IMG/VR virus record: IMGVR_UViG_2698536428_000020
Source of the DNA: a virus
Lineage: Duplodnaviria; Heunggongvirae; Uroviricota; Caudoviricetes
Direction: 5' to 3' (one strand)
Length of the DNA: 39,678 nucleotides
Below are positions 27,001-30,000 of this stretch, piece by piece. The stretch's first letter is position 1, and the number at the start of each line of letters is the position of its first letter. The position numbers were made by a program.

Positions 27001-30000
27001 TTGCCGTTGTCGTAGCCGTCATGCAACACGCTCATGACATCGGACACGGTGACGATAATCACGCTTCTCCCCTTCGCCATCAGCCAGTTGCCAATCGCTG
27101 CTGCAAGGTGATTTTTCCCGGTGCCAGGTTTACCGCTGAACACGAAATTCGTGCAGCCGGTATGCAGCTCTGCCGCGATGGATTTTGCCTGACTCAGAGC
27201 ATGGCGCTGACCGTCGTTCTGCACCCGGTAGTTCCCGAATGAGCACTTCCTGTGAAGCGGCTGGATGCCCGAACGATTCAGGATTTTTTCAACCCGCGTC
27301 TGGTGATTCTGGCGGTTAACTTCCTCGCTGCGCTTCCGGCCCTCAGCCAGTTGCCATTCCAGCCACTCGTCGGTCGTCCGGAACGGTGCTGTAACGTGCG
27401 GTGGAACCAGACGGCGCACCCGTTCAAGAATCCCTCCTGTCGAAATGTTTTTCATGGCTGATTACCCCCTGAAACCCGGCGGAATTTCGGTGTCCGGTTC
27501 AGAAATGTGATTCACGCAACGCAGGCTGACTGCGCCAGCCTTCGGCAGCGACCACGGATTTTCGAAATTCCTGTTCGGGCCAAAAAACGTCGATGCCTGC
27601 TGAACAAATTCAGTTCCCGCTTTCCCGGTAGCCTCCAGGTATCTTGCGTAACGCCTCACGCCATCCAGCACGACATCCGGTGACACCCCTTCGCGTAATC
27701 TGGCCCTCCAGGCATTGAACGCGGATTTCTTCGGGTTTGACCCTGCCCGATGCGGATATTCACGCCAGACCCGTTCGAACACGTCAGGATAATCAACTCG
27801 TCCCGCAGACGGTCCCGGCATCGCCCGGGTTAACCCAATCGGCTTCCCGCTCATCGCGGAATCGGCTTCAGGCTGCTGCGGTTGGTGTTGTTGCTCCGGT
27901 TCGACGTGCAGCACCTGCTGCACACAACGCCCGGAATCTGCTTCCGGTGTCATGCCAGCTGGTCCTGGACGTTCAGTCAGAACGGGACAAGAATCCACCA
28001 GTGGGTCCGTGGCGATTTTTTCGCCATGGACCAGAAGGGTTTTATCTCTTTCCTGTTCCTGTTCCTGTTCTTGGCTTGAAAGGGGCTCTGAAGGGGCTTC
28101 AATTTTCCGACATGATTCACGTCTGACATCCAGGTGGAAATCATCCTTATATCTATCATAAAAGGATGATAAAAAAGGATTTTCCAGCAACGCGGAATAT
28201 TCATTTCTTACCCCAGCACAACGGTTATCGCCTGGTTTCAGCGCTTCACCAACCTGCCATGCTGCCATTTCATGCACCCATACAACCTCAGAATCATGGT
28301 CATAGCTGCAAAAACCAGCCTCGCAAGCCATTTGAAGCCCCTTAGAAGCCCCTTCAGGATCAAGTCCGGTTTCGTGAGCAATGTACAAAACAGGCAGGTA
28401 ATAAAGGCCCAGCATATTGGAATGAGGCGAGGTCATCATATACAACGCCACTACCATACATTCCGGACCAGACTTCCTTAGTTTTCGCCCTGTATCGCCT
28501 AACCAGAACTGAGGTGAAATTGTTGCGTAATTACGCATAGTCCCCTCGCATACAAGATTTACTCCATACCGCAGACGGTCCCGGTATCTCCCGGGTTAAC
28601 CCAATCGGCTTCAGGCTGCTGCGGTTGGTGTGACTGCACATTGGTGTGACTGCACATCTTCACAGACGGTCCCGGTATCTCCGGGTTAACCCAATCGGCT
28701 TCAGGCTGCTGCGGTTGGTGTTGTTGCTGGCGAAATTCTTCCAGATGTGGCAGAATTATTCCCGTGTATTGCTCCATGCCCTGCCTGAATATCAGATATT
28801 CATCAGGATTTGCTCAGAACGTCCGGCCCCAACCGGACGTTTTTTATTTGCATGAACGCGAATGGCATGCTGGAAAGCCCGGCTGATCGGACTGATATCA
28901 GATGCCATCTGGAACGCACATAAAATCGCCGCGATGTATCGCCAGTCGGTACGACTGACCTTCGATTCATGGCAGCCAATCATCTTCGCCAGTCCCCTTT
29001 GCGTCAGAACTGACAGGTTGATAAGTAAATCCGTTTCAGCGCGATCGATATCGCGCTGCGACAGTTTGCTGTAACTTGTTTGTGACATTTGTTAATTTTC
29101 CTATATTGATATGGGGTTAAGCGGCAATCCCAATGGGTTTGCCACTGATGTTTGCTCACCCTGTTAGAGGTGAACGACCAGCAATGTTAAAGAGCGGTGT
29201 TACTTATTCAGCCTGGTTCGGATGAGGAAACAGGTGCGGTAAGTCCGGGCGAATTTCGTAAGCCTTAACCTGACCATTGGTGGCATTAACGATAGCGAAA
29301 ACTTTTTCAGGAGAAACTTTTCCGCCTCGCAACCATTTATGAACAGCGGGCTGTGATACGCCGCAATCAGCTGCAAGTCGTTTTTGACTGCCAACAATAT
29401 TCAAGGCTCGCTGAATCACTAAATTCATGAGCATACCTCTACAGCAAATAAAGCATAACCAAAAATAACATGAGTTATACAACAGAGCAATAACAATTGT
29501 TGTTTTACTTTTGATAACCGTGGTTATAGATTACAGGTATGAAAACATTCGCAGAAAGACTAAATGCCGCCATGAGTTCAGCCGGGTTGTCACAAGCACA
29601 ACTTGCAGACATGGTGGGGGTATCACAACCAGCCATACAAAAGATGTCATCTGGTAAAACAACCGGATCACGTAAAATGGTCGAATTAGCCAACGCGTTA
29701 AGAGTTCGCCCTGAGTGGCTAAGCTCTGGTATAGGGTCAATGAGACCACAGAGCGCAGAAGAGCCATCTAATGCTCGGGAATCATCTTTAAAAGCTATCG
29801 CCTGGGATGATCATCAAAATGATAATGACGAATTTGTTGCGCTCCCCCTTCTAAATATTTCACTTTCAGCTGGCGGAGGAAGTTGTGCATTGGAGGAGTC
29901 CGCAGAATTCTCTCTAGTTTTTAGGCGCTATTACCTGAAAAAAATGGGAGTTCCAGAAAAAGCGGCAAAGTTGGTCAGGGTTGTTGGGCAAAGTATGGAG

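Follow-up and report, generated by a model that had tools for sequence, protein, structure and literature searches.

Five dyad-symmetric sites of the form ATAAC-N4-GTTAT occur in the immunity region of a lambdoid Escherichia coli prophage, IMG/VR virus record IMGVR_UViG_2698536428_000020 (Caudoviricetes), the whole 39,678-bp stretch of which was analysed and is called the window here. All five lie within two non-coding stretches, three in the gap between cro and cI (the right operator, OR) and two upstream of nutL (the left operator, OL). We propose, with a probability of roughly 0.88, that these dyads are the CI/Cro operators of a lambda-type lysis/lysogeny switch that would combine 434-style reading of DNA with lambda-style promoter geometry. 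A first-pass annotation had described three dyads between cro and cI, at least two more upstream of nutL, and ATAAC half-sites common to OR and OL. The dyads were found as described, three exact and two with one mismatch, and there are exactly two full sites upstream of nutL. The interval given for OR had started at 29455, but the first dyad begins at 29465 and the ATAAC at 29455 is an isolated half-site. The sites are as follows, with pR, pRM and pL standing for the predicted promoters of cro, cI and N, respectively.

29465..29478: OR1, ATAACatgaGTTAT, exact dyad, cro-proximal; shares sequence with the spacer and with the opening 3 nt of the predicted pR -10
29490..29503: OR2, ATAACaattGTTGT, one mismatch (right half GTTGT)
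29514..29527: OR3, ATAACcgtgGTTAT, exact dyad, cI-proximal; shares sequence with the pRM spacer and with the opening base of the predicted pRM -10
30741..30754: OL1, ATAACttagGTTAT, exact dyad; shares sequence with the spacer and with the opening 3 nt of the predicted pL -10
30716..30729: OL2, ATAAAtataGTTAT, one mismatch (left half ATAAA); its final base is the first base of the predicted pL -35

The search of the whole prophage for this motif, which the annotation had proposed as a check, returned these five copies at one mismatch or fewer and no others, so that every match falls at OR or OL. Dinucleotide-preserving shuffles of the window (n = 100) contained 0.77 ± 0.89 such matches on average and at most 3, and none of the 100 reached five. 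With up to two mismatches, 20 matches were found in the whole window against 12.2 expected; because this signal is not significant, weight was placed on the dyads with at most one mismatch alone. An unbiased count of 5-mers gave ATAAC/GTTAT as the top over-represented word in the two regulatory stretches taken together (11 against 0.48 expected, Poisson p ~5e-12). The dyads are spaced 25 and 24 bp from centre to centre at OR and 25 bp at OL. OR2 includes a perfect 10-bp palindrome, AACAATTGTT, and its centre lies at about -41.5 from the predicted pR start and about -42.5 from the predicted pRM start. The 4-bp centre of OR3 is G+C-rich and that of OR2 is A+T.

Conservation of the dyads and extent of the operator unit

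Related loci were collected by scanning viral contigs for CI, which yielded 80 loci with 100% to 57% identity, and a scan of species-representative genomes added prophages of Izhakiella, Erwinia, Leminorella, Budvicia and Trabulsiella. The comparison covered 22 distinct OR variants from 77 loci and about 40 OL variants. Wherever CI was at least 73% identical, the examined loci carried dyads at OL and, relative to the cI ATG, at unchanged positions (-74/-75, -49/-50 and -25/-26). All four half-sites of OR1 and OR3 were invariant among the 22 OR variants, and OR2 kept its position and very nearly its half-sites, ATAA(C/G)...(G/A/T)TT(A/G)T. The 4-bp centres drifted (ATGA, ATGG, TCAA, CCAA or CCTA, and CGTG, CGTA, CACG, TTCG or AGAA), and the flanks drifted too. 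At OL, the half-sites of OL1 were conserved in all variants, as was OL2, whose ATAAA deviation was itself kept in nearly all relatives. The distance of OL from the cI start varied from 1177 to 2347 bp between phages, and OL1 and OL2 were still conserved.

Two of the loci depart from this pattern in their genes. The cI frame of L075 (2501-2620) breaks just past the recognition helix (SQPAIQK, then out-of-frame stops) and its five operators and cro are intact; it may be a decaying prophage or reflect a sequencing error in the source contig. L074, with a 73% identical CI, keeps the three ATAAC dyads and differs on the cro side, where an extra ATAAC-N7-GTTAT is present (~2390-2430) and a Cro of the usual type was not found within 250 bp.

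Besides the five dyads, three incomplete sites were recognized. Upstream of nutL, a third full OL site was not found and just half-sites were present.

29455..29459: ATAAC half-site close to where pR is predicted to start; partnerless, the 14-mer having 3 mismatches
30696..30709: candidate weak OL3, ATAACgtttTCCAT, left half perfect, right half degenerate and holding all 3 mismatches; spaced 20 bp from OL2
30682..30686: orphan GTTAT half-site, followed after 9 bp by the ATAAC at 30696 (GTTAT-N9-ATAAC)

The half-site at 29455 is kept in the class with an 85% identical cI and lost in L071, L072 and L075, and this loss suggests that it is probably not essential. The ATAAC at 30696 is mostly conserved, with ATAAT in some loci, and the GTTAT at 30682 becomes GCTAT or ATTAT in some relatives; because of this variation the latter appears to be under weak constraint. 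The gap between the two keeps its length of 9 bp among relatives and varies in sequence. These two half-sites could be weak OL3 and OL4 sites or could belong to a divergent promoter of the small gene that lies between cI and OL. A modest minus-strand promoter candidate, TTATAA-17-TATTTT (30699 to 30671, score 7.5 in the weight-matrix scan described below), overlaps both. The block 30671-30709 is also conserved in the Shiga toxin (Stx) phage SH2026Stx1, in which the plus strand carries the genes upstream of OL, and this weighs against the divergent-promoter idea.

These partial sites bear on the possibility that the operator unit is larger or in another register (16 to 18 bp, with orphan half-sites included and four or more sites per operator, as in the E. 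coli O157:H7 prophage CP-933P), in which case a count of three plus two would be incomplete. OL1 is indeed a 16-bp palindrome, GATAACttagGTTATC, which grows to 18 bp with the next pair included (AGATAAC...GTTATCT); two of the three orphan half-sites are partly conserved around their fixed gap; a third OL site, 20-21 bp away from OL2, occurs in related classes; and CP-933P has extra repeats without one half-site (PMC8630535). The bases flanking the five dyads nevertheless differ from site to site (A/A, A/T, G/A, G/T and G/C). The orphan half-sites also vary in close relatives, down to the loss of 29455, whereas the five core dyads do not. We consider a larger or shifted unit unlikely. In the main reading, the operators with their flanking bases are probably 16 bp long, xATAAC-N4-GTTATx.

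Co-variation of half-sites with the recognition helices of CI and Cro

The two presumed DNA-binding proteins are encoded by divergent genes separated by a 110-bp gap.

29204..29428, minus strand: cro, 74 aa, phrog_35; the same open reading frame is called by the Prokaryotic Genome Annotation Pipeline (PGAP); WP_001054988.1
29539..30246, plus strand: cI, 235 aa, with Pfam HTH_3 (3.8e-9) and Peptidase_S24 (1.1e-17); WP_000846392.1

Cro matched the Pfam family YdaS_toxin above the cut-off (2e-18) and P22_Cro (3e-6) and Cro below their cut-offs. Its nearest entries in PDB are Cro proteins (3bd1, 1.5e-8), with lambda Cro and N15 Cro among the weaker matches. The helix-turn-helix regions of CI and Cro align with each other (E 3e-7), and their recognition helices read S-Q-P-A-I-Q-K in CI and S-Q-P-A-V-H-K in Cro.

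Where CI identity drops to 57-71%, relatives retain the arrangement of 5+4+5 and a spacing of about 24-25 bp, with different half-sites. In these distant classes both arms of every dyad change jointly, at OR and OL alike. The pairings of half-sites and helices are listed below.

ATAAC: CI SQPAIQK; Cro (S/T)QPAVHK; the window and its E. coli relatives
ACAAC: CI SQAAIQK (L076, and L085 from Izhakiella); Cro SQQAVYK (L076)
ATAGC: CI (A/S)QPSVWK (L078, and L087 from Leminorella); Cro KQPSVWA (L078)
ATCGC: CI AQSS(I/V)N(K/R); Cro (A/S)QSTICD; L077 and L079-L081
ATCGC/ATCGT: CI AQSSVWR; L088 of Budvicia, grouped with the preceding ATCGC class

The C-terminal two-thirds of CI are highly conserved across these specificity classes. 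In the CI alignment Gln30 is invariant, as is A at half-site position 1, and Lys35 is nearly invariant, with an invariant C at half-site position 5. This co-variation is the pattern expected if the helices read these bases, and it would be hard to explain otherwise. A Trabulsiella locus (L089, helix SQAAIQK) was set aside as support, having GTTGT-type half-sites without clean ACAAC dyads. In the ATCGC class (L077, L079-L082 and L088) just two clear OR dyads precede cI, 27, 25 or 24 bp apart, and a Shine-Dalgarno-like sequence lies in a leader ahead of cI in L080 at least; the three-site leaderless layout is therefore not universal in this repressor family.

The structural basis of these pairings can be read against two known sets of rules. 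The best PDB match of the CI DNA-binding domain is the 434 repressor (phmmer 3.6e-8 for R1-69 and 8e-9 for a 434 variant), to which residues 6-66 align without gaps, so that Gln28, Gln29, Ser30 and Gln33 of 434 correspond to Gln30, Pro31, Ala32 and Lys35 of CI. Co-crystal structures of 434 assign the reading of A1 to Gln28 and that of the C:G pair at position 2 to Gln29. C occurs at half-site position 2 just where Pro31 is replaced (by Ala in CI and Gln in Cro), and the 434 contacts agree with our data because A1 is invariant here and C2 is limited to this class.

An "evolutionary code" for Cro proteins, which reportedly originates with Hall, Lefevre and Cordes in 2005, supplies the second set of rules. 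It pairs Gln at H1 with A+2, Ala at H3 with A+5, Ser or Thr at H3 with G+5, and Lys at H6 with C+6 (PMC6649833). With the helix of Cro numbered S = H0, Q = H1, P, A = H3, V, H, K = H6 after an alignment to lambda Cro, Cro and xATAAC in the 16-bp frame agree with all three applicable pairings (Gln H1/A+2, Ala H3/A+5 and Lys H6/C+6). The sister classes ATAGC and ATCGC have Ser or Thr at H3 with G+5, as the code has it. Compared with that code, the CI helices here obey the same rules as the Cro helices, and there is an extra correlation of H2 with the next base (Pro or Ser with T, Ala or Gln with C).

This agreement matters for a second alternative, in which CI binds the five dyads and Cro does not bind them all, taking only OR3 or a different, overlapping register, so that the shared-operator picture would be half right. 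Cro and CI differ in fold and dimer interface, the Cro of the telomere phage PY54 is reported to occupy a single operator (PMC4488713), and for CP-933P the exact target sequences of PaaR2 and YdaS are stated to be undetermined, though their footprints overlap (PMC8630535). Yet the Cro helix is nearly identical to the CI helix in all four classes and changes with the half-site, and the half-site fits all three code pairings; a Cro helix that tracks the operator from H1 to H4 would be hard to explain if it read another sequence. Partial occupancy by Cro thus appears quite improbable. That the dyads are chance palindromes or remnants of a duplicated promoter module, without a protein-binding role of their own, might be suggested by the A+T-richness of the regions, the lack of significant enrichment across the window at two mismatches and the resemblance of pR and pL to paralogous modules, but this idea is effectively refuted already by the shuffles, by half-sites that stay invariant while centres and flanks drift, and by palindrome arms that change jointly at OR and OL in step with the helices of two proteins.

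Predicted promoters

Promoters were scanned for with a sigma-70 weight matrix built from approximate base frequencies, the scores of which are indicative only. Background was represented by the best score per 125 bp, with median 5.3, 90th percentile 8.1 and 95th percentile 9.1.

29462..29490, minus strand: predicted pR, -35 TTGCTC (29490 to 29485), 17-nt spacer, -10 TATTTT (29467 to 29462), start near 29455, score 8.14
29504..29532, plus strand: predicted pRM, -35 TTTACT (29504-09), 17-nt spacer, -10 TAGATT (29527-32), score 9.76
30729..30757, plus strand: predicted pL, -35 TTGCAC (30729-34), 17-nt spacer, -10 TATCTT (30752-57), start near 30764, score 8.22

Each of the three ranks first on its own strand, and pRM exceeds the 95th percentile. 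The geometry of pR and pL is alike: the -35 shares one base with OR2 or OL2, six bases follow, and then comes the next operator, whose last three bases (TAT) open the -10. Operator centres lie at about -17 and -42 from the predicted pR and pL starts. Lambda has the same distances, about -17 and -42 for the operator centres at pR and pL and about -42 for OR2 at pRM. Relatives keep TATCTT or TATAAT at the same promoter offsets; their -35-like hexamers are TTGCTA, TGGACA and TAGACA at the pR offset, a TTGACC -35 and an invariant TATCTT occur at the pL offset, and at pRM TA(G/C)ATT and the block TTTTACTTT are conserved.

The predicted pRM start falls at or near the A of the cI ATG (29539), which follows TAGATT by 6 nt and has no usable Shine-Dalgarno sequence. 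The -10 hexamer of lambda pRM is also TAGATT, likewise 6 nt from the cI ATG. Because the hexamer and its distance from the ATG are as in lambda pRM and a usable ribosome-binding site is missing, the cI mRNA is probably leaderless. Leaderless cI and paaR2 have been described (PMC8630535).

Two further claims of the first-pass annotation, that the ATAAC half-sites define the immunity specificity of the prophage and that the operators mark the likely positions of pR, pRM and pL, gain support from these comparisons: in distant relatives the half-site changes along with the recognition helices of both proteins, and the top promoter candidate on each strand overlaps the sites in the manner of lambda.

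A model of the switch

In the model that we infer from sequence, which extends to binding, occupancy order, cooperativity, promoter and start positions, activation of pRM and a leaderless cI, a CI dimer would place one 434-like helix-turn-helix on each ATAAC half-site. Gln30 would read A1, Lys35 would read the G opposite C5, and Pro31 and Ala32 would set positions 2 to 4, the central 4 bp not being read base by base; the half-site sequence would in this way set the immunity specificity. In a lysogen, CI on OR1 and OR2 would block pR (cro, cII and the replication genes) and CI on OL1 and OL2 would block pL (N and the early left operon). At OR2, about -42 from the cI start and abutting the pRM -35, CI is placed such that it would probably activate pRM, and at high concentration CI at OR3 would shut pRM off. 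Upon DNA damage, RecA-stimulated self-cleavage at Ala111-Gly112 by the Ser152/Lys189 dyad would remove CI. Cro, whose helix closely resembles that of CI (SQPAVHK compared with SQPAIQK), would then bind the same sites, presumably OR3 first, and silence pRM. An experimental precedent exists in CP-933P, where the analogues of CI and of Cro, the latter from the YdaS family, protect overlapping operators in footprints and the repressor gene is leaderless (PMC8630535).

Several observations weigh against this interpretation. The co-variation amounts to four specificity classes, which are not statistically independent samples. Weight-matrix scores of pR and pL reach just about the 90th percentile of background, the -35 hexamers of the three predicted promoters match TTGACA at 3 or 4 of 6 positions, and a strict sigma-70 consensus scan of 29100-31000 missed all three, giving one unrelated match inside a small open reading frame. 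Since there are just two full OL sites, looping that depends on OL3 as in lambda is not assured. A lambda-like order of affinities cannot be read from the half-sites because OR3 is perfect and OR2 imperfect; in 434, a G+C-rich operator centre lowers affinity, and OR3 may be weakened in the same way here. Cro occupancy of all five sites is an assumption because some Cro proteins bind fewer sites than CI, as reported for PY54 (PMC4488713). Finally, binding or transcription data for this immunity type were not found in the searchable literature.

Genes flanking the operators

The segment 27000-33000 of the window is 100% identical to the chromosomes of JNEC-KY208 and STEC17-183, and within 29150-30900 phage PA28 and several Stx1a-converting phages match it at 99% identity. 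The gene order is that of a DnaC-like loader and an O-like initiator, cII, cro, cI, a hairpin, a small gene, nutL and N. The Ala111-Gly112 cleavage site, Ser152 and Lys189 of the S24 self-cleaving domain of CI are all invariant in the CI alignment. The remaining features are as follows.

28792-29088, minus strand: cII
30371-30388: terminator-like hairpin between cI and the small converging gene
30399-30608 (possibly from 30665), minus strand: small gene, phrog_3946 (5.6e-30), between cI and OL, converging on cI
30804..30843, plus strand: nutL, with boxA GCTCTTTAA (30804-12) and a phage-21-type boxB hairpin TCTCAACctaaccGTTGAGA (30824-43)
30954..31292, plus strand: N antiterminator with a phage-21-like arginine-rich motif; phrog_271 (1e-30), weak Pfam N_peptide match, N-like in PA28

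N is the first gene of the pL operon, and the OL dyads sit 50-90 bp upstream of the 21-type boxA/boxB and N. The nutL stretch is 91% identical to the annotated nutL of phage 21 (OL657228), and boxA is also noted in the mEp235 and HK629 records. A mosaic junction lies near 30766, just downstream of pL, where nutL and N are of the phage 21 type and the immunity region is unrelated to phage 21. The phrog_3946 gene is annotated by PGAP in the E. coli chromosome and absent from the RefSeq annotation of PA28; at its position, phages that share these operators can have other genes, on the plus strand (DUF3024 and others in SH2026Stx1).

A repeat of about 60 bp occurs at 28572-28721 in two copies 90-91 bp apart (41 nt identical and 30 nt at 87%), inside a minus-strand open reading frame (28559-28777, phrog_2751) between cII and the O-like replication gene. 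The peptide motif HQPQQPEAD that it encodes recurs within the O-like protein, and the repeats could be related to the origin or be a recent duplication. Genes for a RelE/ParE-family toxin and a HigA-family antitoxin are annotated in the same prophage at ~24000-24474 (L084 1-475), about 3 kb beyond the replication genes.

Comparison with known phage switches

The region resembles lambda in its divergent cI and cro with a gap of about 110 bp holding three dyads, in the repetition of the motif at OL before nutL and N, in a CI with an S24 self-cleaving domain, and in the 6 nt that separate the pRM -10 (TAGATT) from the cI ATG; xATAAC, taken in the 16-bp frame, is one core position away from lambda TATCAC. 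It differs from lambda in that the operators are of even length (14 or 16 bp, with the axis between base pairs) and not 17 bp, the CI N-terminal domain is 434-like, and Cro is of the YdaS/Xylella-Cro sequence type. There are two full OL sites, the OL-OR distance is about 1.3 kb compared with about 2.4 kb in lambda, and the small converging phrog_3946 gene takes the place of rexAB. Lambda, 434 and P22 each have three OL sites.

With 434, whose 14-bp operators read ACAA-N6-TTGT, the region shares operators of 14 bp with conserved outer bases and a variable centre, a repressor and a Cro with nearly the same recognition helix, and the Gln that reads A1. The sister class L076/L085 reads ACAAC, and the L076 Cro helix starts SQQ, compared with TQQ in 434. 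In contrast to the ACAA(G/T) of 434 the half-site here is ATAAC, Gln29 and Gln33 of 434 are replaced by Pro31 and Lys35, C5 is conserved, and the unread centre is 4 bp and not 6. The marks of 434 immunity, an ACAA half-site and the Gln28/Gln29/Gln33 triad, are thus represented here by ATAAC and Gln30/Pro31/Lys35, and the window phage and 434 are heteroimmune. Identity to the 434 repressor is low, and the phage collection holds no CI relatives between about 60% and about 40% identity.

The Stx2 phage 933W is also lambdoid, occurs in Shiga-toxin-producing E. coli and has three OR and two OL sites. Its five natural operators are 15 bp long with a central base pair and have a different consensus (PMC3317979), and they showed no sequence resemblance to the operators here. 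The PA28 cro record notes "933W Cro"; 933W was ruled out as the source of the operators by its 15-bp sites, its other consensus and the lack of a 933W match above 60% for CI. Phage 21 immunity, considered for the 21-like N and nutL, was ruled out as well, since similarity to phage 21 begins only at 30766, downstream of OL. Because the half-site and key residues differ, this is not lambda, 434, 21 or 933W immunity. The PaaR2/YdaS/YdaT module of CP-933P is similar in its YdaS-family Cro analogue, divergent promoters and OL-like sites at the pL analogue (PMC8630535). It differs in the repeat consensus, GTTTAGTAA, and in having 18-bp equally spaced repeats, four per region (PMC8630535); there PaaR2 is followed by a toxin-antitoxin pair, whereas CI here is a classical S24 repressor.

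A published description of these operator sequences was not found in the literature searched, the 2005 Cro/operator database lying outside that search, and a paper on regulatory diversity of Stx phages (PMC8951638) makes no mention of PA28 or operator sequences.

Implications for immunity among prophages of Shiga-toxin-producing E. coli

The region adds one more case, well supported and ordinary, to the classic lambda/434 switches; it would not surprise a specialist, and the general view of how such switches work is unchanged by it. The four related half-site/helix pairings form a set for testing helix-turn-helix recognition rules. We put at about even odds the proposal that the CI and Cro proteins of this clade form a natural specificity series, in which one or two substitutions at H2 and H3 (Pro to Ala, Gln or Ser at H2; Ala to Ser or Thr at H3) shifted the targets of two proteins of different fold together with all operators, across half-sites ATAAC, ACAAC, ATAGC and ATCGC, with the C-terminal domain retained. 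If true, such a series would extend the Cro recognition code to CI repressors and supply ready-made swap experiments.

For the biology of Shiga-toxin-producing E. coli, the operators define the immunity group to which one of the prophage types of these bacteria belongs, and knowing them predicts which co-resident or superinfecting phages this CI represses. The CIs of PA28-type phages, to which the window belongs, and of SH2026Stx1-type Stx1 phages are only about 85% identical but share the same helix and half-sites. A corollary of the proposed specificity series is that the two types should be homoimmune, each repressing the other in E. coli that harbours several Stx prophages. The operator positions, together with the probable promoter positions, can help in designing reporters and derivatives that are non-inducible or mutated in an operator.

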